Under the pieces are notes generated by a model, which saw only the letters and a program-made list of their open reading frames with translations, searched no databases and was not told where the DNA came from. A stretch of 64,000 nucleotides of DNA from Psilocybe cubensis (lineage: Eukaryota), in contig CM039004.1 in the NCBI GenBank assembly GCA_017499595.2, positions 1 through 64,000 on the forward strand, given 5' to 3'. Position 1 is the first letter of the stretch, and each line of letters begins with the position of its first letter. The position numbers were made by a program, and so were the translations under genes. This document shows, piece after piece, positions 6,961 through 36,909 of this stretch.

Positions 6961-7035
6961 AAGAATAGCCACTGAAGAGTCTATAAAGACGAAAGGGCTG
7001 GTTGTTGGGATCCCCCAACAGCCCTCTGGCCTTCT
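6961..7035 (+). ncRNA. Hammerhead ribozyme (stem III variant beta), cleavage after C7026
   Basis: CTGAAGA GTC..GAC GAAA GGGCTGGTTGTTGGGATCCCCCAACAGCCC TC TGGC. Confidence 0.9.
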
Positions 7036-16593: not shown

Positions 16594-17257
16594 TCCATTT
16601 AACTCACAGTTTAAACAAGTCGCTCGCACCTCGCTTCGCTCGGTGCTCGCTCCCCCCCTAAACCCTAAAACCTAAACCCTAAACCCTAAACCCTAAACCC
16701 TAACCTAACCCCAACCCTAAGCTAACTAAGTCTAACCTTAGTAGGAAGTAAGGTAGGCGTGTGAACTTCCGAACGGCATGTGATTGTGAAGGGCCGGATC
16801 TAATTTAGTACATGGGAAAAGTTACTTAGTACTTCGGGAAAAGTTCCTTAGTACCGTGGAAACATTTTTGATGGACCGGATCATGAACTGTCCAATTAAG
16901 ATTCACAACAATCAATCATTCTATTGTTTGATTGTTAGGTAAGGACCCAGGTAAGTTATTTATACTCTAGACATGTGAATATTCCCATGTCGCGGTTACT
17001 CGGAGCCACGTAACCAGAGTAATCTATATCCATGTGATTCACATCACAGTCAATAACCCACGATGTCAAAGAACAAAAGTGTTGGATCCACTTTTGACAG
17101 GTTACCATGTGCCACATCGACCCGTGACACTCTGTTCATCAGAGACCTGTCTAACTTGACAATAAACATTGACAGATTTGTGATAGTCGGTAAGATACAT
17201 GACAGCTGCGCAGCATCACTTCACGCGCTGTCATCGGATGTCTAGAACATTCCTTCT

Positions 17258-18262
17258 AAGAATAGCCACTGAAGAGTCTATAAAGACGAAAGGGCTGGTT
17301 GTTGGGATCCCCCAACAGCCCTCAAGTACTCGTCCTCTCCCAAACTCCTGCCGCTTGTGCCTTCCCAACTCATCCGGGAGCCCTTTCGTCACTGATCTTG
17401 CCCTTGACTCGGGGACGTTTCATCGACATGTTGGCTGCCTCACGGCAAGCGGGGCCCTTTTTCTTTCACTCGCTCACGCCTTCTATGTTGGGTTACGGAG
17501 GTCATACAAACTCGTTTTAGTCTAGCTGCGGGGATATCCAGCTATGATGACTTTGTAATTCGAGGGCGCGCAGTTCTTCAATGGGTATGGACATCAGGTG
17601 AGAGTACACTGGGGGTTGTCAGGACCAGCTCTGCTGGATACGCTCCTGGCAAGTCGGTTGCAGCCGGCGACACTACCGAATTGCTGGGACGTCCTAAAGC
17701 TTGTGGGTACCGCCGACCGCTGGAAACAGCCTAGGCACCGGTGGCGACCGGGTATGGTAACAATCCCCAAGATTCAGCGAAAGCTGGAATGGATAATCAG
17801 CAGCGAATCCGTAACGGTCACGCCGACGGAAGCGTTCAACGACTAGGTGGTAGTGGGGTCTTCGGATCTTAAGATATAGTCTTGGGAGTGGGGAAACCCA
17901 CATCTGGTATCTAAACCGCGCCTCGCTGCTTACGAGGACGGCCCGAAGTCCAGAACCGCTTAAAACGCGGGTGACCCGGCCTCCCCTTAGTAAAGGGAGT
18001 TAACACAAGGATGGACAAATAGTTCGTCGCCGGAAATGAACCTGTGGCTGTAATGGCTGATGTGGCGCCCCTTGGTAAAGGGCTTAAAGGGTATTAGCCT
18101 GCCATGTCCAATGGCATGAGAGTGTCCCTTGGTAAAGGACTTAATAGGCAATAGCCTGCTCTTTTGTCATGAGCGGTATGTAGTGATCGTTTGCCTGTAC
18201 GGTAGCGCCCATTGCTTGCACTGGTCCACGCCCGTAAAAAATCACGAGCCGCTGGCTACTTT
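17258..18262 (+). ncRNA. Hammerhead ribozyme (beta) split by a group I intron between the U and C of its cleavage triplet
   Basis: 5' part CTGAAGA...GAAAGGGCTG...CAGCCCT ends at 17322; 3' part CTGGCTACTTTCC resumes at 18252; joining them reproduces 22604-22680. Confidence 0.88.
17323..18251 (+). ncRNA. Group I self-splicing intron (IC1-like), no homing endonuclease ORF evident
   Basis: P GAATTGCTGGGA (17678-17689), Q AATCAGCAGC (17795-17804), R GTTCAACGACTAG (17834-17846), S TAAGATATAGTC (17870-17881); P3 CACTACC/GGTAGTG; P8 with UUCG loop; P9 GTGGGGAAACCCAC; 5' exon ends in U, intron ends in G; IGS GGGGTTGT (17612-17619) pairs with exon ACAGCCCT. Confidence 0.88.
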
Positions 18263-18362
18263 CCATTTAACTCCCAGTTTAAACTAGTCGCTCGCACCTC
18301 GCTTCGCTCGGTGCTCGCTCCCCCCCTAAACCCAACGACTTTGCTATTATCCATCAGCCACT

Positions 18363-21300
18363 ATGTCATCTCAATACTCTGCTGCTTTCTCTCGTGCCAT
18401 GTCCCCCACCCTGGACGCACTCACCCAGGCCGTCGTCAACAACACCGTTTTCGGCGTCAACGATGAAGCAGGCCGCCATAACGCTCTGATCGACGAGCTG
18501 GCCACTGTGGTCATCAAAAAAATAGCTGAGTGCCGCTCCGTTGACCAAGTCATAGACTGCGTCTTTTTTGACTATCGTGCTGCCCTTAGGGAGTTTCTCC
18601 TCAACCTCGCATCGTGGTGCGATAAGAGGGAAACAGTCAAGGCTAGCCTCGAGCGCCTTGAATCTGCCGTTAGCGCAGGCAACACGCCCAATCGCCTTAA
18701 GGTGAAGGCACCCGAGTTCCAACTTACGAAGGAATTCGCGAATGCCGGGTCAGCGGAGGCTCTTCGAGTCTCCACTACGTTCTCTACCGCTCGTGACGCC
18801 TTCCAAAAGGCAATTAACGACGGCGCCATTCAGGCGAAAAAGGACGAGCTGACTTTTTGGGATGATAAATGCGCACTCAACTCTTGCTACGAAGCTGCTG
18901 CCCTCATCGTTAAGGCAACTTACGATGATCGCAAATCCAGCTACAAGCTCCCTGTTTTCTCTACAGATAACAAGGGAGTTCGACGTATAGCAGAGTGGGT
19001 AGTGTCTCCGCAAAAGAAAGCCGAATGCAGTGCGCTGCAAACCATACTGCCGGCGATCTTTTCTCACATCAAACAAATTGTCAACATGCGCCACCGCGCT
19101 TTGGCAATTAAGATTGAGAAAAAGCGGACGACTGCGGCAACAGCCGATGTCGAGATGGCCGACGCGACCAAACCAGGTCCGTCGATTCAATCCCTTATTG
19201 ATAAGGGCTTGAATGCACGTCTCAAGAAGCTCAACCTTGGATCTGTGGGCAAGAAGGCAAGTTTTCGTAACCCTTCACCCATAATTCTGGATACTAATTA
19301 CTACTCTAATTACCCAGACTTTGTCTGGCCAGAATTCATCCAAGGCTCCTCAACCTCAGGCCAAGAAAGCTGGCCCTTCGAAACCCAAGTCGTCGTCGAC
19401 GCCTTCGCAACGCAAGCCTCAAACCAAGGCTTCCAACAAGGTCGACAACAAGAAGAAAGGGAAGGGGAGAGCTCCCGTCAAGAACGATCCAAAGGGAAAG
19501 GGAAAGGCAAGAGCCTAGATGCGCGGTCTAATGTAGTACCTTTTACGTCGGTGAGACCCGCCTTCCCCAACTCTATTCCTGACGATATACTCACCATGAC
19601 TAAAACAGACGCAGTTTCTTTCGTACACTTACATACTCCAATATCATTCTTGTTGGCTGGCCAGTATCGTAGTAGTGTACATTGTAGTCCTGGTGTTTCT
19701 GTCCCTGTTGATGTAGCAAACGATCTCTCTCTCGGACTTAATTATATGTTTTTCACTCTGCCTTCTAAAAGTCTGATCATGCAAGCATGGAATGATTTCC
19801 AACGAAGAATAAGATGGCGTATCTATTTTTTGTTTAAGGAAGGCATGAATAAACCTTTTGATCCAGATTATGGAGTAAGCTCAAAAAAGAAAGAGAAACC
19901 TCCTGTATTACCGCAATATATGGAACTTGGCCTTTCGATGGGACGTCGGTACGTGCAACGCACGATCGCAAGTATCCCGGAAGAAGCCCTTACGGAGATG
20001 CGAAAGCACGCGTTCTCTCCTAAAAGGGACAAGATCCGTAAGTTTCTTATCGATAACAACTATGTTATTACGATGACAGATAAGAATCTTGGCCTCGCGG
20101 TGTCTGAACGCGACTGGATATTAAGGAATGAGCTCAATCTTCTTGAAGATGAACGTAATTACGAAGAGTTAGAATTCGAAGTTGCGCAAGAAGTTATGAA
20201 GAGCAAAATGATTCAGATGCAAACGCTCGCACGTACTGTCGAAGATGAACATCTGTTTCTATTTGAACTTGGGTTGTCTCGATTCTTTCTATCGAATGTA
20301 CCGGAAGACGGATCATCGTTCAAGTATCCTCAATTTCATGGTATACCTAAAATCCACAAGAAACCTACTGGATTTAGGCCCATAATTCCGTGTCACTCTG
20401 TAGTATTTAATCCTGCAGCCAAGTTTGTATCAAAAGAGCTTAAGCCGATTATTAAATCGACTCCTTCAATCATACACGGAACGAAGGATCTCTTTACGAG
20501 ATTAAGCCAATTGCGTATAGACTCCAAAAGACAATGGTATTTTGTCACTGGAGATGTAGTTGCTTTCTATCCCAATATTCCGTTGGACTTGTGCATCGAA
20601 ATCGTTTGTAGTATGTACGAGGAATGGTTACTCAACGCTTCGGAAGAAAACACTGCATTAGCCCATATTAATCCAAATTCGTTAGAGAATAACTTGGTTA
20701 AATTGGGCATCTTTAAACGTGCTATCGAGATTGGCAATACGCAATTGATAACACAACATGGGTCTAGATATTTTAGACAAAAAAATGGCCTCGCAATGGG
20801 CGTCGCGGATTCTCCGGACCTTGCTAACCTCTTTGGAGCCCATTTTGAAATAAAGTCAAAAATCTTAGACCACCCAAACGTGGCCTTCTATGGAAGGTAC
20901 ATCGACGATTGTTTCGCAATTGTTTACGCCGAGTCCGAAGCACTTGCACTTAATCTTATTAAAGAAACAATAAAGTTCGATGGTTGTGTTATCGAATGGG
21001 CTGTTTCCTCGTCGGGATGTCAATTTCTCGATGCTTTCATATTCAAGGAGTCTGGAAAACTTCATTGGAAGCCTTTTGTCAAGACAGGAAACAACCGAGA
21101 ACGAGTTCCATGGGTATCACATCATCCTTTGGACGTCAAACGTGGCGTCTACATTGGAGAGTTATCCAGGTTAGCCGTGCTATGTAGTACCAAGGAAATC
21201 TACATCGGAGCAATTAGAGACCTTAACGCTCTCTATTTGATGCGCGGTTATCCCGAAAACCTAGTCATATCTTGGTGTAAGAAGAATATACAAGAACGTT

Positions 21301-21893
21301 GGGAAAAGCGATTCGCTTTACGAGTCGCAGAGCACGACGAATCCATTCTTGTACTTAAAACCAGATTTGATCAGGTATGGAATTGGTTTTCAGCTGCTGA
21401 ACTTGGAAAAACTGTTACCGAGTACTGGTCGGCATGGTATGAACATGCCGAGAAAGGTTTGTATAGTGCAGACTCGTCCAGACCCCTTATCAAACCAGAT
21501 CCAAATTACGTTCACGACCTCGATGATGTTCGCCCGGAGCTGTTCACACAGATCCTCGTGGACGGAGAAACTGAGTTCGTACCGGATTTGAGGAAGATAG
21601 GACTACTCGGAAGTCGTTGGATAGTATCGCGAAAACGCAATACTAATCTTTTCGACCTTGCAAATGTGTGGAAGAAAACAGTCTTTCGTAAACTGGATGA
21701 AGACATCGCTGAAAAAGGTGGTGTTGTTCCCGAAACTCAAAACGTTAATGAAACTTATCATTCTGCTTTAGTTGAAGCTGCTGAGCAGATAAGTATCGAA
21801 AGTGATAACGAGATAATACTTCATAGACGTTCAATCTCACAAGAGAGGGAACATCCAGAATTTGGCAGAATATCCAAATCTTACAACCGATGA
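18363..21893 (+). CDS. PLE ORF1-RT polyprotein (1176 aa)
   Basis: Intact ORF, paralog of 7141-10674. Confidence 0.9.
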   Translation: MSSQYSAAFSRAMSPTLDALTQAVVNNTVFGVNDEAGRHNALIDELATVVIKKIAECRSVDQVIDCVFFDYRAALREFLLNLASWCDKRETVKASLERLESAVSAGNTPNRLKVKAPEFQLTKEFANAGSAEALRVSTTFSTARDAFQKAINDGAIQAKKDELTFWDDKCALNSCYEAAALIVKATYDDRKSSYKLPVFSTDNKGVRRIAEWVVSPQKKAECSALQTILPAIFSHIKQIVNMRHRALAIKIEKKRTTAATADVEMADATKPGPSIQSLIDKGLNARLKKLNLGSVGKKASFRNPSPIILDTNYYSNYPDFVWPEFIQGSSTSGQESWPFETQVVVDAFATQASNQGFQQGRQQEEREGESSRQERSKGKGKGKSLDARSNVVPFTSVRPAFPNSIPDDILTMTKTDAVSFVHLHTPISFLLAGQYRSSVHCSPGVSVPVDVANDLSLGLNYMFFTLPSKSLIMQAWNDFQRRIRWRIYFLFKEGMNKPFDPDYGVSSKKKEKPPVLPQYMELGLSMGRRYVQRTIASIPEEALTEMRKHAFSPKRDKIRKFLIDNNYVITMTDKNLGLAVSERDWILRNELNLLEDERNYEELEFEVAQEVMKSKMIQMQTLARTVEDEHLFLFELGLSRFFLSNVPEDGSSFKYPQFHGIPKIHKKPTGFRPIIPCHSVVFNPAAKFVSKELKPIIKSTPSIIHGTKDLFTRLSQLRIDSKRQWYFVTGDVVAFYPNIPLDLCIEIVCSMYEEWLLNASEENTALAHINPNSLENNLVKLGIFKRAIEIGNTQLITQHGSRYFRQKNGLAMGVADSPDLANLFGAHFEIKSKILDHPNVAFYGRYIDDCFAIVYAESEALALNLIKETIKFDGCVIEWAVSSSGCQFLDAFIFKESGKLHWKPFVKTGNNRERVPWVSHHPLDVKRGVYIGELSRLAVLCSTKEIYIGAIRDLNALYLMRGYPENLVISWCKKNIQERWEKRFALRVAEHDESILVLKTRFDQVWNWFSAAELGKTVTEYWSAWYEHAEKGLYSADSSRPLIKPDPNYVHDLDDVRPELFTQILVDGETEFVPDLRKIGLLGSRWIVSRKRNTNLFDLANVWKKTVFRKLDEDIAEKGGVVPETQNVNETYHSALVEAAEQISIESDNEIILHRRSISQEREHPEFGRISKSYNR

Positions 21894-22603
21894 AAAGAAT
21901 ACTAGCGCTTAAGGCGTAAAGCATTAGAAAAAAACCCTAACCGTAAGTATTCCTTGCTATAAAGTAACAAACATCTACTTACAAGCAACACATTGGATTG
22001 AATAGCTAAACCTAAACCTAAACCCTAAACCCTAAACCCTAAACCCTAACCTAACCCCAACCCTAAGCTAACTAAGTCTAACCTTAGTAGGAAGTAAGGT
22101 AGGCGTGTGAACTTCCGAACGGCATGTGATTGTGAAGGGCCGGATCTAATTTAGTACATGGGAAAAGTTACTTAGTACTTCGGGAAAAGTTCCTTAGTAC
22201 CGTGGAAACATTTTTGATGGACCGGATCATGAACTGTCCAATTAAGATTCACAACAATCAATCATTCTATTGTTTGATTGTTAGGTAAGGACCCAGGTAA
22301 GTTATTTATACTCTAGACATGTGAATATTCCCATGTCGCGGTTACTCGGAGCCACGTAACCAGAGTAATCTATATCCATGTGATTCACATCACAGTCAAT
22401 AACCCACGATGTCAAAGAACAAAAGTGTTGGATCCACTTTTGACAGGTTACCATGTGCCACATCGACCCGTGACACTCTGTTCATCAGAGACCTGTCTAA
22501 CTTGACAATAAACATTGACAGATTTGTGATAGTCGGTAAGATACATGACAGCTGCGCAGCATCACTTCACGCGCTGTCATCGGATGTCTAGAACATTCCT
22601 TCT

Positions 22604-22680
22604 AAGAATAGCCACTGAAGAGTCTATAAAGACGAAAGGGCTGGTTGTTGGGATCCCCCAACAGCCCTCTGGCTACTTTC
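22604..22680 (+). ncRNA. Hammerhead ribozyme (beta; intron-less allele of the interrupted copy), cleavage after C22669
   Basis: Core intact; shares the TGGCTACTTTCC flank with 18253 onward. Confidence 0.88.
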
Positions 22681-22767
22681 CATTTAACTCCCAGTTTAAA
22701 CTAGTCGCTCGCACCTCGCTTCGCTCGGTGCTCGCTCCCCCCCTAAACCCTAAACCCTAAACCCTAA

Positions 22768-23779
22768 ACCCGAAACTCAAAACGTTAATGAAACTTATCA
22801 TTCTGCTTTAGTTGAAGCTGCTGAACAGATAAGTATCGAAAGTGATAACGAGATAATACTTCATAGACGTTCAATCTCACAAGAGAGGGAACATCCAGAA
22901 TTCGGCAGAATATCCAAATCTTACAACCGATGAAAAGAATACTAGCGCGTAAGGCGTAAAGCATTAGAAAAAAACCCTAACCGTAAGTATTCCTTGCTAC
23001 AAAGTAACAAACATCTACTTACAAGCAACACATTGGATTAAATAGCTAAACCTAAACCTAAACCCTAAACCCTAAACCCTAAGCCCTAACCTAACCCCAA
23101 CCCTAAGCTAACTAAGTCTAACCTTAGTAGGAAGTAAGGTAGGCGTGTGAACTTCCGAAAGGCATGTGATTGTGAAGGGCCGGATCTAATTTAGTACATG
23201 GGAAAAGTTACTTAGTACCTCGGGAAAAGTTCCTTAGTACCGTGGAAACATTTTTGATGGACCGGATCATGAACTGTCCAATTAAGATTCACAACAATCA
23301 ATCAATTGATTGTTAGGTAAGGACCCAGGTAAGCTATTTATACTCTTGACATGAGAATATTCCCATGTCACGGTTACTCGGAGCCACGTAACCAGAGTAT
23401 TTTATATCCATGTGATTCACATCACAGTCAATAACCCACGATGTCAAAGAACAAAAATGTTGGATCCACTTTTGACAGGTTACCATGTGCCACATCGACC
23501 CGTGACACTCTGTTCATCAGAGATCTGTCTAACTTGACAATAAACATTGACAGATTTGTGATAGTCGGTAAGATACATGACAGCTGCGCAGCATCACTTC
23601 ACGCGCTGTCATCGGATGTTCCAGAACATTCCTTCTAAGAATAGCCACTGAAGAGTCTATAAAGACGAAAGGGCTGGCTGCTGATAACAATCAACAGCCC
23701 TCTGGCCTTCTTTCCATTTAACTCACAGTTTAAACAAGTCGCTCGCACCTCGCTTCGCTCGGTGCTCGCTCCCCCCCTA
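22768..23779 (+). mobile_element. PLE family A copy A6, heavily 5'-truncated (last ~55 codons, 3' UTR and pLTR)
   Basis: Starts at CCCGAAACTCAAAAC after a telomeric tract; stop codon at ~22933; alpha-type pLTR. Confidence 0.92.
23637..23712 (+). ncRNA. Hammerhead ribozyme (alpha), cleavage after C23702
   Basis: Same core as 2750-2825. Confidence 0.9.
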
Positions 23780-31620: not shown

Positions 31621-34600
31621 CTAATCTAGCGGGTAAAACTCAAGGCCAAGAGCGGATCTATGTTTCAAGAATAGATCAGGACCTAGATTCTTGGTAAACA
31701 TATCGGCAACGTTATCAGCAGTCGGAACTGCATATAATTTGAGTGTGCCTTGCTCTATTTGTTCCCGTATGTAATGATAGCGAATCTCCACGTGCTTAAT
31801 CCCTTTTTGTGTCACGGGATTCTGCGCGTTGAATATTGCACCATGTGAGTCCGCATAGACTGGGACGTGGGAAATTGGTTTGGCCAGTTCCGCAAATAGA
31901 TTTTTAATCCATGCGCAATCTTTGGCGCAGTCGGAGAGTGCCATGTATTCACTCATAGTAGACGACGTCGAGACTAACTTCTGTGTCTGTGATTTCCACA
32001 TGACCGCAGCATTTGCCAAGCTAAAGAAGTAGCCTTGTGCAGACCGACGCTTAAGGTCGAGCTCTGATTGGTCATCTCCATAGGAGGCGTCACAATAGGC
32101 ATATAGGCCTGCGCGAGACTTCCCATCATAAACTAAGGCATATTTGCGTGTGCCAACAAGGTACCGCATAATATATTTAGCCTTGTTCATGTGGTCTTCA
32201 GATGGATTGGAAGCAAACTTTGCCATCTGAGTCACTGTATAGGCAATGTCAGGTCTAGTTCCAAGCATTAGGTAAAGCAAGGAACCAATCACTGATTGGT
32301 ACTGCGAGCGAAGTTGTGCCGAACTAGTACCATCGAACGGCATTGGGCGATAGCCCATGGGTAAGGGAGTTCTAGCAGCTTTAGCATCGCTCATGCCAAA
32401 CCGGGTTAGAACCTTCTCCAAATAGTTGGCTTGACTTAAGAGGATTTTGCCATCTTTGTAATCAATAGCCATGCGGAGAAACTCCCGTGATTCTCCGAGA
32501 TCCCGGCAATCCCACTTCTTCATAAAGAGATCTTTCTTCTGTCGTGCGAGTTCGGAGTTAGGTCCAGTGATCTGGATGTCGTCGACATAGGCAAACATTA
32601 TTGCTAACGTGCCGTCGGTATGACGTGAGATGAAGATGCCGGCGTCCGAGTATAGTCTGGTGAATCCAAGCTCTTTTAGACTTCTGTCTAGCTCGAACCA
32701 CCATGCTCGTGCGGCTTGTTTGAGCCCATAAATTGCCTTTTTAAGCCGGAGTACTTTCTTCTCCTGTCCCTTTAGAACAAAGCCCTCAGGCTGTTCCATA
32801 TATATCTCCTCGTCTAACGGCCCATAAAGGAAGGCCGATATGACGTCAAGGGACCAGACTTTCCACCTTTCGAGTGCGGCAAGGGCAAATATTGTGCGAA
32901 CACTTGGTAGCATGACCACAGGTGAGAATAACTCATCGTAGTCTAGGCCTTCTATCTGTAAGAAGCCTTTGGCTACCAGACGAGCCTTTTTCCGACCATC
33001 AGTTTTGATGTCGTAGACCCATCTGCATTTGATGGCTTTTCGGCCATTAGGGAGATCGACAAGCTCATAGACCTCTCTTTTGACAAGGACCTCTAACTCG
33101 TCTTTCATGGCTTGTCTCCATTCCTTCTGTTGGTCAGCTGGTAATTTCAGCAAATCACGCAGGGTCCAGTCACGGACATCCTTTGTGAGACCATAATCAG
33201 TAGCGCAGATGATTTCGCAGACCCGTTTGGAAAGTAATGTTGCGAAAAGACTGTTTGCTACTCCCCCTTCCGTCCCTGAATTAGGGATACCAGATTCAAC
33301 ATTGCGATTGCTACTAGATCGAGTAAGTGGCACGTAATCAGGGACGGATGCCACTCCGTGTGAAACAGTCTGCAACTTCTTACGTCGATCTTTATCGGTC
33401 GTTGTTCCGGGTCGGTAAACATTGCCTTCCCGCTCTGGTACTTTCCGAGTTCTATCCGACCTTCTGGGCGGAGGCTTGACAGGTGTATCAGGCATTTTTG
33501 GTCTTTGACCTGACGTGGGAGGTGTTACGTATCCCTGATCGTCGTCATCCTGATCATTGTCATCGTCACGAGGAGGACGTGAACTAGGCCCTGGCATAGA
33601 ACTTGGAGGACTGGCGGACCGTGGGCTCGGTTGATCGCCTGTCTCTTTCGGCAGAGGTGGCATTGGAAAGTCGTCGTTATCGGAATCGGTCGACTCACTT
33701 CCATAGCCGATTTCAAAGGAGGGTCCCTTTGGTTTTGGAGGATTAAAGCGTGTGTTGGGTGGAATCTTCCTCTTAGATTCACACTTTGGGAATAAGGTTT
33801 CATCGAATAGGGCCTTGTTCGCACGAAAGACCACATTATTCGGAGATCTCATAAAGATCATCACCGAATTAGATTCGTAGCCGAGGAATGTCATCAACTC
33901 GGAACGCGGTGATAACTTATTTTTACGCTGCTCCTTGTGTAGGTACACATAAGCTGCGCATCCCAAAGTTTTAATTTTAGACACATCAGGTAACTCCCCC
34001 TTAAGGGCCTGATGGGGTGTCTTCCACTCGATGCGTTTTACCGGAGTCCTATTGTATAGGAAGACAGCGTGGGCACAGCAAAATTGCCACCAGCTATCCG
34101 GTAGACAGGCGTAATGCCTCATCGCTTCAGACTTTTCCATAATTGTCCTGTTTAGTCTTTCAGCTCGACCATTGCTCTGATGAGCATAGGGAGCTGTAAA
34201 GCAGGCACGTGTACCGGCATTTTGTAGCCGTTCCAAGAATTCGGTACTAACGAATTCTCCGCCATTATCAAAGAAGTATTCTTTGACGGAGGTACCGTAC
34301 TGTTTTTCCACCATTTTCTCGAAAGAATTCACAGCCGCAGCGGCATCACTCTTCTTTTTAAGAAAGTAGAGCCATACGTGTGGGGTGTGGTCGTCCAAAA
34401 AGGACATGAAGTATTTACACTTCTGGTAGGAATAAACAGAAAATGTCTTGAGATCACAATGAATACGATCAAAAGGCTTCTTCGCGCGTTTGGGGTTTTC
34501 GTCATATGACTTATCAGTCATTTTACCCTTTGCGCAGCCTTCACAGACATTTTTGTCCTTGGGTACACTTATTTTGGGAAAGTTCTTAGTGGAGTCCCTA

Positions 34601-36909
34601 AAATGTCTTAGAACATCATCAGAGGGATGACCAAGACGTCGATGCCAAAGGTCACTTGCCTCTTGAAGAGTCGAAGATAACGTGCTAATGTCTTCTCCAG
34701 AGACAATGCGCGTATGCACCCAATACATTGGATGTCTGTTCGATTCAATTGAATCTGCCCTGGCTTGCAGGCCATATGATTTTTTAGGCAAATCAAAGAA
34801 CCGAAGGACTTTAGCTGTTCCTTCTATGGTCATGCCGGACGACAAGAGTTGTCCCATCGACATTAATCGGACATGTAATTGTTCCATGTATAGAACAGGA
34901 TGGAGTCGGCGGACTTCATGTCCCGGATCCTCGGAGTGGGAAACCACTTCTACGAAGACTGTTCCAAAACCGGTGATAGGCACCGTGGTAGTGGCAGTTT
35001 GCGAAATAGGTCGATTATTCTCAGCAAAGTCTTGATAACTCGCAAAATCAGACTTATCGCCAGTAAAGTGCACACTAGCACCACTGTCCATTAACCAAGC
35101 CGTTATGACTTCTTTCCCCTTTTTGGGTTTTTCAGTTCCTTTTCCTTTGCAATCTGGACAACACGCAAAATGAGATAGATATTTTTGGTATACATCATGT
35201 ACAAATGAGTAGTAAATATCTACAGGGAACTCCTCCTCCTCCGGCCGGTCGACTGTTGAGTCGTTGTCGTCTCTAGATGGGGTAGTCCCTGTGGGAATCT
35301 CAGTGTTATTTATGGTCCAATTGCTAGAACTAGAACTTACTTGCCTATCAACGAAATGGTCATCGTAGTAACCATCATAGAGATCCTCATCGTTTTCTCC
35401 GTAATCCACACGTTCCTCAATAGGAACATCAGGAGACCGTTCTCTCTGATCATCAAAGTTTGGGATATCACCCCATTGCTTTGGTTCCGGTCCGAATAGC
35501 TCATTATTAAGCTTTTCGATCTCCGGAGATGTGATCTCACCATCAACGACCATGTGATCGTCAATAGTTTCAGAGTTGACGGGCGGAGTCTTCAACCTTT
35601 CTGCGAGGGAGACATCCGAAGGAATTTGTAAGCTGCTCGTGGCAACGCTTTCCATGATCTGGAGTGCCTGCGAAGTAGGCTTTACACCAATTCTGGAAGC
35701 TAGGCTGCGTGCGGCAGCAGGAGCCGGGTATGGCGCCATGCGTGTGTCCGGATTTCTCCAGGGCCCAGCCGGAGCAGAGGTACGGGAGGAGATACTTCCT
35801 CTACCGTTGATCTCGATGATCCTTGACGTGGTGGGAGCTGGAATTGCCGGTTCGAGAACCGTCAATGTTGATGCCATAAAGACATCATCCGCTAAGGCTG
35901 TATTGCCTTGTGCACGCTGCTTGCCTTTGCCTCGTGGGGCACGCTTACGAATCCTCTTCTCCTGATTATCACCCTGAGACTGTCCCTGATTAGGGGTCTT
36001 CGAAGGATGATAGTGAGGGTGTTCCCCTTTTGGTCGGATCGCAGTATTGCGTTCAGCCGACTGTTGCGGTGCCCGGGAAGGGCCGGTCTTTGGTGCAGGC
36101 TTAGGGTCATATGTCGTACCCTTTTTAGGCTTTTGCCTGTCATCCAGATTACCAAACCGCGCTCCCCAACGATTGCGGATATCAGCGGAGATAGCCTCCA
36201 GCTTCATGTCGTCAATCTTGGTCTTGTCTCCATAATCATTAATAAGATCTTGATATATGGAGGGCGGTTGATTGGGCGATACCGCAAGGGGTAAACGTGA
36301 GAATAAGATGAGACATGCCATGGTCTCGGATACTAGATCCGCATTTTCGACCTTTTTGACATGCTCGTAGATGGCTCTGAAACGGGCCAGCTGAGGGGTA
36401 GGATCCGAAAGATCAAATTTGAAGGTGGTCAGACGTTTGAAGTCCTCCATCACTTCAACAAATTGAACTTTATCGTATTTTGCTTTCAGATCATCCCATG
36501 CCCCCTTCGCAGTCTTTCCCTTGACTGTTTCCCAAATAGATGGGATCAAGGAATTCGCGATGACACCTAGTGCCTTGGAATTCTGCTCCTTAAAATCTTT
36601 CATCGCCTTTTCAAACGACGAAGATCTTTGCGACCAGCGTTGGAATTGGATTTTCCACAGCTCAATTTGAGCTGCATTAACAGTTGTTGCCGGAGCAACG
36701 GGGGATGGGAATGCAGGCTCTCCTTCAATTGGAGAAGGGGCCACAACATCTCCAGAAATAACCCCATCAACACCAGTCAGGAGGAATATGGGAAGCATTT
36801 TGTCAGCCCATTTTCGATAGTTAGAACCATCGAATTTGGGGAATTCGGAAACAGATACGGTTGCTTTGGAAGACATTCTTAGTGCGCTTAAAGCTTGAGC
36901 CTGTGACAA
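31621..36909 (-). CDS. Copia Gag-Pol polyprotein (Gag, protease, integrase, RT, RNase H)
   Basis: FDGSNYRKW (gag), WLMDSGAS (protease), LWHRRLGH..CEGC and DNGGEF..NGRAER (integrase), KARLVAKG and YVDD (RT), IKHVEIRYHYIRE and ADMFTK (RNase H); true start codon uncertain. Confidence 0.95.
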   Translation of the reverse strand: MSQAQALSALRMSSKATVSVSEFPKFDGSNYRKWADKMLPIFLLTGVDGVISGDVVAPSPIEGEPAFPSPVAPATTVNAAQIELWKIQFQRWSQRSSSFEKAMKDFKEQNSKALGVIANSLIPSIWETVKGKTAKGAWDDLKAKYDKVQFVEVMEDFKRLTTFKFDLSDPTPQLARFRAIYEHVKKVENADLVSETMACLILFSRLPLAVSPNQPPSIYQDLINDYGDKTKIDDMKLEAISADIRNRWGARFGNLDDRQKPKKGTTYDPKPAPKTGPSRAPQQSAERNTAIRPKGEHPHYHPSKTPNQGQSQGDNQEKRIRKRAPRGKGKQRAQGNTALADDVFMASTLTVLEPAIPAPTTSRIIEINGRGSISSRTSAPAGPWRNPDTRMAPYPAPAAARSLASRIGVKPTSQALQIMESVATSSLQIPSDVSLAERLKTPPVNSETIDDHMVVDGEITSPEIEKLNNELFGPEPKQWGDIPNFDDQRERSPDVPIEERVDYGENDEDLYDGYYDDHFVDRQVSSSSSNWTINNTEIPTGTTPSRDDNDSTVDRPEEEEFPVDIYYSFVHDVYQKYLSHFACCPDCKGKGTEKPKKGKEVITAWLMDSGASVHFTGDKSDFASYQDFAENNRPISQTATTTVPITGFGTVFVEVVSHSEDPGHEVRRLHPVLYMEQLHVRLMSMGQLLSSGMTIEGTAKVLRFFDLPKKSYGLQARADSIESNRHPMYWVHTRIVSGEDISTLSSTLQEASDLWHRRLGHPSDDVLRHFRDSTKNFPKISVPKDKNVCEGCAKGKMTDKSYDENPKRAKKPFDRIHCDLKTFSVYSYQKCKYFMSFLDDHTPHVWLYFLKKKSDAAAAVNSFEKMVEKQYGTSVKEYFFDNGGEFVSTEFLERLQNAGTRACFTAPYAHQSNGRAERLNRTIMEKSEAMRHYACLPDSWWQFCCAHAVFLYNRTPVKRIEWKTPHQALKGELPDVSKIKTLGCAAYVYLHKEQRKNKLSPRSELMTFLGYESNSVMIFMRSPNNVVFRANKALFDETLFPKCESKRKIPPNTRFNPPKPKGPSFEIGYGSESTDSDNDDFPMPPLPKETGDQPSPRSASPPSSMPGPSSRPPRDDDNDQDDDDQGYVTPPTSGQRPKMPDTPVKPPPRRSDRTRKVPEREGNVYRPGTTTDKDRRKKLQTVSHGVASVPDYVPLTRSSSNRNVESGIPNSGTEGGVANSLFATLLSKRVCEIICATDYGLTKDVRDWTLRDLLKLPADQQKEWRQAMKDELEVLVKREVYELVDLPNGRKAIKCRWVYDIKTDGRKKARLVAKGFLQIEGLDYDELFSPVVMLPSVRTIFALAALERWKVWSLDVISAFLYGPLDEEIYMEQPEGFVLKGQEKKVLRLKKAIYGLKQAARAWWFELDRSLKELGFTRLYSDAGIFISRHTDGTLAIMFAYVDDIQITGPNSELARQKKDLFMKKWDCRDLGESREFLRMAIDYKDGKILLSQANYLEKVLTRFGMSDAKAARTPLPMGYRPMPFDGTSSAQLRSQYQSVIGSLLYLMLGTRPDIAYTVTQMAKFASNPSEDHMNKAKYIMRYLVGTRKYALVYDGKSRAGLYAYCDASYGDDQSELDLKRRSAQGYFFSLANAAVMWKSQTQKLVSTSSTMSEYMALSDCAKDCAWIKNLFAELAKPISHVPVYADSHGAIFNAQNPVTQKGIKHVEIRYHYIREQIEQGTLKLYAVPTADNVADMFTKNLGPDLFLKHRSALGLEFYPLD

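Follow-up and report, generated by a model that had tools for sequence, protein, structure and literature searches.

As stated in PMC3679873, PMC8395846 and PMC1299323, all known nuclear group I introns interrupt ribosomal RNA (rRNA) genes. Here we describe a 929-nt group I intron in a different place, on a 64,000-nt stretch of Psilocybe cubensis DNA (contig CM039004.1 of assembly GCA_017499595.2, positions 1 to 64,000; referred to as the window). It splits a hammerhead ribozyme in the pseudo-long terminal repeat (pseudo-LTR) of a retroelement that, judged by its parts, matches the endonuclease-less, telomere-associated Penelope-like elements (PLEs).

The closest counterparts in architecture are the IC1 introns of nuclear ribosomal DNA (rDNA), which are Tetrahymena-like and numerous in fungi. 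Shared features are membership in the RF00028 family, P2 and P2.1, a predicted extended P5 arm with GAAA loops, a P7 of GACUA/UAGUC, the J8/7 segment AAGAUAUAGUC, a G as last nucleotide and, at the 5' splice site, pairing of U with G. Unlike these introns, the present one, whose P1 loop is enlarged by an insertion of 270 nt, resides in the untranslated leader of a telomeric retroelement, inside another ribozyme.

Its host ribozyme also has described counterparts. For PLEs of fungi and protists, Cervera and de la Pena 2014 (PMC4209133) describe a type I hammerhead variant with a large helix III. The endonuclease-deficient PLEs treated there (PMC4209133) resemble our element in the type I fold, the pseudo-LTR location, the large helix III with short helices I and II, and in being telomere-associated with a reverse transcriptase (RT) only; the difference is that one copy here is split by a larger ribozyme between U16.1 and C17. 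The same source mentions that PLEs retain spliceosomal introns through retrotransposition (Arkhipova et al. 2003, cited in PMC4209133). A retroelement of the same class carrying an intron through its RNA-copying cycle makes such carriage less strange here, although the present intron is a self-splicing group I ribozyme and not a spliceosomal one. Tetrahymena and Didymium introns have been made to reverse-splice into rRNA experimentally, with a guide pairing to 4-8 nt of the 5' exon, and a 2013 review states that experimental evidence for the full pathway from reverse splicing over reverse transcription to genomic integration is still lacking (PMC3679873). The entry route proposed below is the same, except that the element owning the target RNA would itself supply the RT and the integration step.

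Two further systems invite comparison. In twin-ribozyme introns, which PMC3679873 also mentions, a GIR1 lariat-capping ribozyme and an endonuclease gene lie inside an rDNA group I splicing ribozyme. Catalytic RNA is nested in catalytic RNA there as well, but in our case the group I intron is the guest and the hammerhead the host, and no GIR1 match was found around the insert at E-values up to 10. Mobile group II introns, which come with an RT gene of their own and insert into DNA by reverse splicing (retrohoming), likewise are self-splicing introns that spread via reverse splicing plus an RT; the present intron, in contrast, is a group I intron that encodes nothing and would have to rely on the RT of the invaded element. 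The literature searched, mostly outside subscription journals and supplements, described no group I intron in a PLE, in a hammerhead or at a nuclear non-rDNA site. As judged from sequence and predicted structure, the intron belongs to a known family, being group I by every feature testable, and its setting is new to that literature.

The interrupted hammerhead

A search for the core motif in the window revealed ten type I hammerheads, all on the forward strand and all in pseudo-LTRs. Each copy has the type I core CUGANGA...GAAA...UH and three helices with helix I open, arranged as helix I (either UAGCCA/UGGCUA or only 4 bp long), CUGAAGA, helix II (GUCU-AUAA-AGAC), GAAA, a long helix III, U16.1 and C17. 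Nine are uninterrupted and read ...CAACAGCCCTCTGGC..., whereas the copy with its core start at 17269 reads ...CAACAGCCCT/CAAGTACTC... and picks up again as ...CACGAGCCG/CTGGCTAC at 18252 (slashes mark the boundaries). The break follows ...CAACAGCCCU and the sequence returns with CUGGCUAC, so that the 929-nt insert (17323-18251) lies between U16.1 and C17, with a 1-nt (C) ambiguity of placement. Comparison of the ten copies thereby bears out a sequence-only reading of this locus, which had proposed a 929-nt insert within a retroelement hammerhead alongside nine intact copies and had noted the same ambiguity.

The 5' part of the split hammerhead (17263-17322, forward strand) was checked helix by helix. 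It comprises the helix I 5' strand UAGCCA (17263-17268), the core CUGAAGA (17269-17275), helix II as GUCU-AUAA-AGAC (17276-17287), GAAA (17288-17291), helix III (17292-17321) and U16.1 (17322). The 3' exon on the same strand (18252-18334) begins with C17 (18252) and the helix I 3' strand UGGCUA (18253-18258), continues with the remainder of the pseudo-LTR and ends in CCCCCCCTAAACCC.

We identify the hammerheads by their core motif and by the variant published for fungal PLEs. One intact copy (22590-22674) aligns over the full length of RF03152 with 29.1 bits, below the gathering score of 56.3, and reaches 19.5 bits against RF00008, below the gathering score of 48.5; no hammerhead attains an Rfam gathering score anywhere in the window.

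The pseudo-LTRs fall into two subfamilies according to the helix III interior, which is GGCTGCTGATAACAATCAACAG or GGTTGTTGGGATCCCCCAACAG. The hammerheads at 2761, 6246, 12118, 16529 and 23648 form one group and those at 6972, 11390, 17269, 22615 and 60146 the other, and both pseudo-LTRs of any one unit belong to a single subfamily.

The exact empty site

The intron-bearing element provides its own intron-less control. Its downstream pseudo-LTR (22006-22750, forward strand) contains an intact hammerhead, the copy at 22615, whose flanks are identical to those of the split copy at 17269 and in which the empty-site junction is 22668/22669. When the insert is removed from the upstream pseudo-LTR (16658-17322 joined to 18252-18334) and the remainder is aligned to the downstream one, 0 mismatches are found in 747 nt, and the two gap openings are confined to the 5' edge with its telomere-like repeat. 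A variant of the 3' exon (CTGGCTAC...CTCCCAG) is common to the two pseudo-LTRs of this element and occurs in no other copy of the window. Other type A pseudo-LTR copies differ by 1-2%, and other window copies overall by 1-5%. Twins that are identical except for the intron, and that break exactly at the group I junction, are the product expected of forward or reverse splicing; a deletion or insertion of DNA would meet that exact phosphodiester by luck only.

Intron core

The insert (17323-18251, forward strand) starts with C and ends with G18251, the omega G. RF00028, the Rfam family of group I introns, matches 17607-17903 with 70.9 bits (gathering score 50, E = 5.6e-16) over the whole model (positions 1-253 of 253), and nowhere in the 64 kb does another Rfam family attain its gathering score. 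The earlier assignment of the insert to group I is confirmed by this covariance-model match, and the core it had outlined (P3, a P7 of GACTA/TAGTC, P8 and P9) stood up to a base-by-base check of the helices. In that check the pairings of P2, P2.1, P3 (8 bp), P4 (6 bp), P5, P6, P7, P8 and P9 were all real. P2 (17620-17648, containing an inner hairpin) and P2.1 (17653-17668), together 17620-17668, are followed by the catalytic core P3-P9 (17671-17901), which is delimited by the RF00028 alignment and the helix check. P7 (17841-17845 with 17877-17881) is GACUA/UAGUC and carries the G-C pair of the guanosine site, P8 is closed by a UUCG loop and P9 by a GAAA loop, and J8/7 is identical to the RF00028 consensus. 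In the predicted folds the P5 arm is extended and P5abc-like, with GAAA hairpins at 17719-17730 and 17775-17786 and an A-rich segment at 17757-17769. With P2.1 and this extended P5 arm we take the architecture, judged by inspection, to be probably IC1-like. We conclude that the insert is a bona fide group I intron without an open reading frame (ORF) of its own.

The ORF-less state had also been predicted, and it agrees with a Pfam scan of 8 of the 17 stop-to-stop ORFs of at least 40 aa in the insert, in which no domain hit, to a homing endonuclease or otherwise, fell below an E-value of 0.1. Homing at the DNA level would consequently have no visible agent. An Rfam scan of 16900-18700 with E-values up to 10 gave no rRNA and no GIR1, the only matches being RF00028, a weak hammerhead and a weak suhB-like hit. 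The latter, to the bacterial small RNA family suhB/mmgR (17393-17472, 21.6 bits, E = 0.14), reflects a GC hairpin followed by a U run in the P1-loop insertion and was dismissed as chance. Derivation of the insert from another sequence of the window was rejected as well, matches within the window being at most 20 nt long.

Relatives of the intron were sought in metagenomes. An exact 25-nt core pattern gave no match, and a looser pattern from P7 to J8/7 gave at least 120 loci. A BLAST comparison of the insert with the 120 loci listed yielded 12 short matches (at most 56 nt, 78-88% identity), all within the core (insert positions 345-392 and 506-560). Among these 120 loci, a hammerhead-like core string lies up to 1.5 kb upstream in one, which looks like chance, and telomere repeats accompany none.

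Splice sites and guide pairing

The 5' strand of P1 (17315-17331, forward strand) consists of the last 8 exon nucleotides ACAGCCCU, the intron bases CA, an unpaired A and GUACUC. It pairs with the internal guide sequence and P1 3' strand (17602-17619, forward strand), GAGUAC-AC-UGGGGGUUGU, which lies directly 5' of P2 and 280 nt downstream of the exon/intron boundary. Ten pairs join ACAGCCCUCA (17315-17324) to 17610-17619, among them U17322.G17612 where the splice site is proposed; another six are contributed by GUACUC (17326-17331) with GAGUAC (17602-17607). On the exon side, the guide takes up the 3' strand of helix III together with U16.1, the strand that the hammerhead itself uses. A local P1 offered by the Rfam alignment (17611-17630) contains 5 non-standard pairs and was dropped in favour of the long-range P1.

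Out of 685 upstream positions, it is the 16-mer at the boundary that forms the most stable duplex with the guide region, at -21.4 kcal/mol against -15.9 kcal/mol for the best unrelated site after it. In the whole window, both strands included, 27 of about 128,000 16-mers attain -21.4 kcal/mol; they occupy 11 bins, each about 30 nt wide, and the actual site makes up one bin. Full pairing with the 8-nt guide is possible for 208 of 127,984 8-mers. A match of boundary and guide by chance is unlikely. The guide at 17612-17619 with its 8 exon pairs, the U-G at the splice site and the GTACTC/GAGTAC extension, all part of the sequence-only reading, are thus verified, as is its statement that the exon ends in U and the insert in G: the 5' exon ends in U17322, and G18251 directly precedes CUGGC. 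A possible P9.0 would be formed by CC (18249-18250) and GG (17884-17885).

The same reading had the intron target the most constrained RNA motif of the element. This holds in part: helix III is constrained as a pairing and not as a sequence, but ACAGCCCU itself is invariant in all ten window copies and in every read variant listed. The guide target ACAGCCCT is the same in both pseudo-LTR subfamilies and in the listed read variants.

Reads and contigs of other runs

At least half of the sampled insert words were present in 10 of the 20 sequencing runs listed (four organism labels, four studies); two of these 10 may be the source of the window. Raw whole-genome shotgun reads of run X17 cover the insert continuously, at a depth of about 78-120 compared with about 1450 on the pseudo-LTR (orientations summed). 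By the window copies and the reads, about 1 in 10-13 pseudo-LTRs is occupied by the intron. A contig of run X8 crosses the 5' junction (17273-17495; 11 differences, 9 gaps) and a contig of run X10 the 3' junction (17734-18291).

In X17, variants of the insert are carried by about one third to two thirds of the reads, which implies several diverged intron copies. We take these to be about three per genome, a rough figure that assumes a genome of 40-47 Mb from the contig totals of sister runs. The read mapping is described here by its best-supported entries, beyond which there are 58 variants and 64 loose ends. The 23 variant positions listed for the insert comprise 11 within the P1-loop insertion, 7 within the 3' extension and 5 within the core region of 300 nt; none of the 23 is in P1, P3, P4, the P7 core or a 12-nt segment described below. 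One of them, 17867 T>C, converts the P8 pair G17858.U17867 into G-C.

Nine X17 DNA reads join 18251 back to 17323, a head-to-tail junction of the intron. It could stem from a tandem intron or from a DNA copy of a full-length intron circle. Nine reads are fewer than expected of a fixed single-copy junction. The loose ends listed gave no other context for the intron ends.

The host element

The first 24 kb of the window are a head-to-tail array of a single retroelement family, with another copy near 59-60 kb. In each unit an ORF stands between two pseudo-LTRs, the first of them about 740 nt long; the unit ends in CCCCCCCTAAACCC and is followed by (CCCTAAA)n and then by the next unit, which is often 5'-truncated. 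The 7-nt CCCTAAA repeats stand between array units at 16655-16715 and 22735-22770, for instance, and the start of the pseudo-LTR consists of degenerate copies of them. Accordingly placed is the upstream pseudo-LTR of the intron-bearing element, which up to the splice site forms the 5' exon (16658-17322, forward strand) and starts in telomere-like CCCTAAA repeats. Raw reads join the pseudo-LTR end at 18333 to long C-rich repeats of the telomere type. The array looks as if units had been added one after another at a chromosome end, the older, 5'-truncated ones lying to the right.

Between the two pseudo-LTRs lies an intact ORF of 1176 aa (18363-21893, forward strand), a probable reverse transcriptase in which RT motifs, YIDDCF among them, were recognized by eye. 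A large protein search returned 306 relatives, many of them on contigs of 4-5 kb; the three best are 98-99% identical and are recorded publicly as hypothetical or RT-domain proteins of Psilocybe cubensis. The families precomputed for these 98-99% identical proteins are PF00078, PF28514 and PF26215, a GIY-YIG endonuclease domain being absent, and the nearest Atlas clusters have the same three families. Our own hmmscan of the ORF against Pfam found no family at E-values up to 10, which is at odds with the domains precomputed for the near-identical proteins. A search of PDB sequences gave chance-level matches only (E > 1). Published endonuclease-deficient, telomere-associated PLEs combine an RT, a hammerhead and telomere repeats, as described in PMC8557442 and PMC13159263. 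Pseudo-LTRs with a hammerhead, tandem arrangement and attachment to telomeric repeats are all present in our element, which on the basis of its hammerhead, telomere repeats, YIDDCF motif and the precomputed domains of its relatives matches an endonuclease-less, telomere-associated PLE.

Elsewhere in the window, the reverse strand of 31621-36876 encodes an intact-looking Copia-type polyprotein of an LTR retrotransposon (1751 aa; RVT_2 with E = 2.8e-67, plus rve and gag domains).

Peripheral regions and an antisense segment

Two large regions flank the conserved parts of the intron on the forward strand, the P1-loop insertion (17332-17601, 270 nt), which shows no coding signal, and a 3' extension (17902-18250, 349 nt) with two similar modules. 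Neither can be regarded as a well-folded domain, the folding z-scores being -0.18 (against 200 shuffles) and -0.68, respectively. The modules of the 3' extension, at about 18064-18100 and 18122-18160, share CCCUUGGUAAAGG...UUAA...AGCCUGC and apparently arose by internal duplication; a third, shorter CCCCUUAGUAAAGGG hairpin is located at about 17982-17997.

Within the P1-loop insertion, the 12-nt segment AGCCCUUUCGUC (17379-17390, forward strand) is a perfect complement of GACGAAAGGGCU (17285-17296), which runs from the helix II 3' strand through the GAAA core into the base of helix III. The match holds for all ten hammerheads. It was found post hoc; a match of this length to the 66-nt hammerhead part was reached by 3 of 1000 dinucleotide shuffles of the insert, and to the whole upstream pseudo-LTR by 5 of 200 shuffles. 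The duplex has a predicted energy of -23.5 kcal/mol and forms in the minimum free energy (MFE) fold of the precursor, where it opens the helix III base. We put forward, purely as a hypothesis, that the segment may act as an "anti-hammerhead" helper that frees the exon strand for the guide.

Proposed life cycle and alternative explanations

We think it likely that an IC1-like, ORF-less intron resides in the RNA of a Penelope-like element, is gained and lost at the level of RNA, through reverse and forward splicing, and is copied by the RT of the element. In this cycle, the guide of a free intron would pair with ACAGCCCU of the element RNA, and the intron would reverse-splice at ...ACAGCCCU/C, between U16.1 and C17. 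The unspliced RNA would then be copied onto chromosome ends by the element's own RT (terminal retrotransposition), and forward splicing would remove the intron and restore the hammerhead exactly. As long as the intron is present, the hammerhead core would be broken between 16.1 and 17, allowing self-cleavage only after splicing. Since, in addition, P1 and helix III compete for one strand, cleavage should wait for splicing. The guide reads the 5' exon only, and a second intron could therefore enter an intron-bearing RNA at its 5' splice site; the head-to-tail junction might have arisen by such a second reverse splicing at the same exon or by integration of a full-length circle, a reaction reported in vitro according to PMC3679873. 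The mechanistic part of this scheme, i.e. entry at the RNA level, copying by the RT and cleavage after splicing, is something we infer, and it is consistent with the sequence data.

A more far-reaching version appears doubtful to us, if conceivable: the intron might be an active mobile ribozyme specialised on the hammerhead of this element by means of a two-part guide, one part recognizing ACAGCCCU and the other being the 12-nt segment that pairs with GACGAAAGGGCU and opens helix III. It would reverse-splice one base upstream of the scissile bond, travel to chromosome ends via the RT of the element and gate the processing of its RNA.

Several observations weigh against the proposed cycle. In one X8 contig, which represents a related copy, G18251 is followed by TCTTTCATTTTAAC..., that is by an exon without its first 7 nt (C17 and helix I); this junction is imprecise, and such a copy could not rebuild a hammerhead after splicing. 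The intron may have other contexts beyond the best-supported entries of the read mapping. The P1-loop insertion and 3' extension, about 620 of the 929 intron nucleotides, do not exceed shuffled sequence in folding, and the intron may therefore be in decay. P10 is weak, and the guide is G/U-rich and hence promiscuous. P1 does not appear in the MFE fold of the precursor, in which helix III is partly retained; by itself, the hairpin of helix III amounts to -17.3 kcal/mol. No close relative of the intron occurs among the 120 metagenome loci listed, the similarity being at the level of the core only. Two runs that, by guess, represent RNA under the same organism label contain 0 sampled insert words and an ice metatranscriptome run a fraction of 0.04, so that all three are uninformative on splicing, and ligated exons would be indistinguishable from transcripts of empty copies.

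Some of these points feed the view that the intron is a fossil, which once entered a pseudo-LTR, no longer splices and persists in few copies as dead cargo of the retroelement or through recombination between pseudo-LTRs. Two thirds of its length without structure beyond chance, RNA data that are silent on splicing, the weak P10 and the competition of helix III with P1 would all suit such a relic. It is difficult to reconcile with a core well above the gathering score in which all conserved joints are intact, and with listed variants that spare P1, P3, P4 and the P7 core, one of them even restoring a Watson-Crick pair in P8. Moreover, it is difficult to see how the element could hold an intron-less twin with 0 mismatches in 747 nt unless splicing or reverse splicing had taken place recently, and we consider a fossil rather unlikely. 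Alternatively, the intron could be a passenger without specific relation to its site, captured when the RT, having arrived at the 5' end of a hammerhead-cleaved RNA, jumped onto free intron RNA from elsewhere (e.g. rDNA) and from there onto the 3' end of the upstream cleavage fragment. The 1-nt ambiguity permits placement of the insert at the scissile bond (...CAGCCCUC/.../UGGCUAC), every pseudo-LTR/ORF junction of the array rebuilds a hammerhead, as RT jumps between cleaved ends would do, and the head-to-tail junction of the nine reads as well as the X8 3' junction that is 7 nt short could be products of template jumps. However, an RNA captured in this way would start with A and end with C instead of having the added 5' G and the terminal G of an excised linear intron, and the 8-nt exon/guide pairing with a U.G at the other boundary would have to be a coincidence (about 0.16% of 8-mers qualify). 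Neither junction shows non-templated bases, and the empty site is exact; template switching is thus an improbable origin.

Homing or gene conversion at the DNA level would require an endonuclease encoded elsewhere that cuts the hammerhead DNA and repair that copies the intron in. Homing is the usual route of group I introns according to reviews (PMC3679873), and recombination could likewise spread copies between pseudo-LTRs. Yet the 8 of 17 insert ORFs scanned contained no endonuclease ORF or remnant, and an occupancy of about 1 in 10-13 pseudo-LTRs contrasts with the near-complete conversion that homing produces, which makes this route very unlikely. Finally, the highly repetitive nature of the region could raise the suspicion of an assembly chimera, with the insert not truly at this genomic place. 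The unbroken X17 raw reads over the insert, the junction-crossing contigs of X8 and X10 and the 10 of 20 listed runs with at least half of the insert words refute an assembly artefact, and we give a chimera practically no weight. The preferred reading remains the residence of the intron in PLE RNA with gain and loss by splicing.

Implications

If the reading as a specialised mobile ribozyme were true, nuclear group I introns would have their first member outside rDNA, and the pathway long proposed, from reverse splicing through reverse transcription to integration, would have an example in nature. The rule that confines nuclear group I introns to rDNA would be relaxed, and one may ask how many such introns hide in repeats that are masked by annotation pipelines. 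At this locus one ribozyme interrupts, and probably gates, another. Because the host transcript belongs to a retroelement, the RT and integration steps that are missing elsewhere would be supplied by the target itself, and the intron may offer a natural and directly testable case of that pathway.

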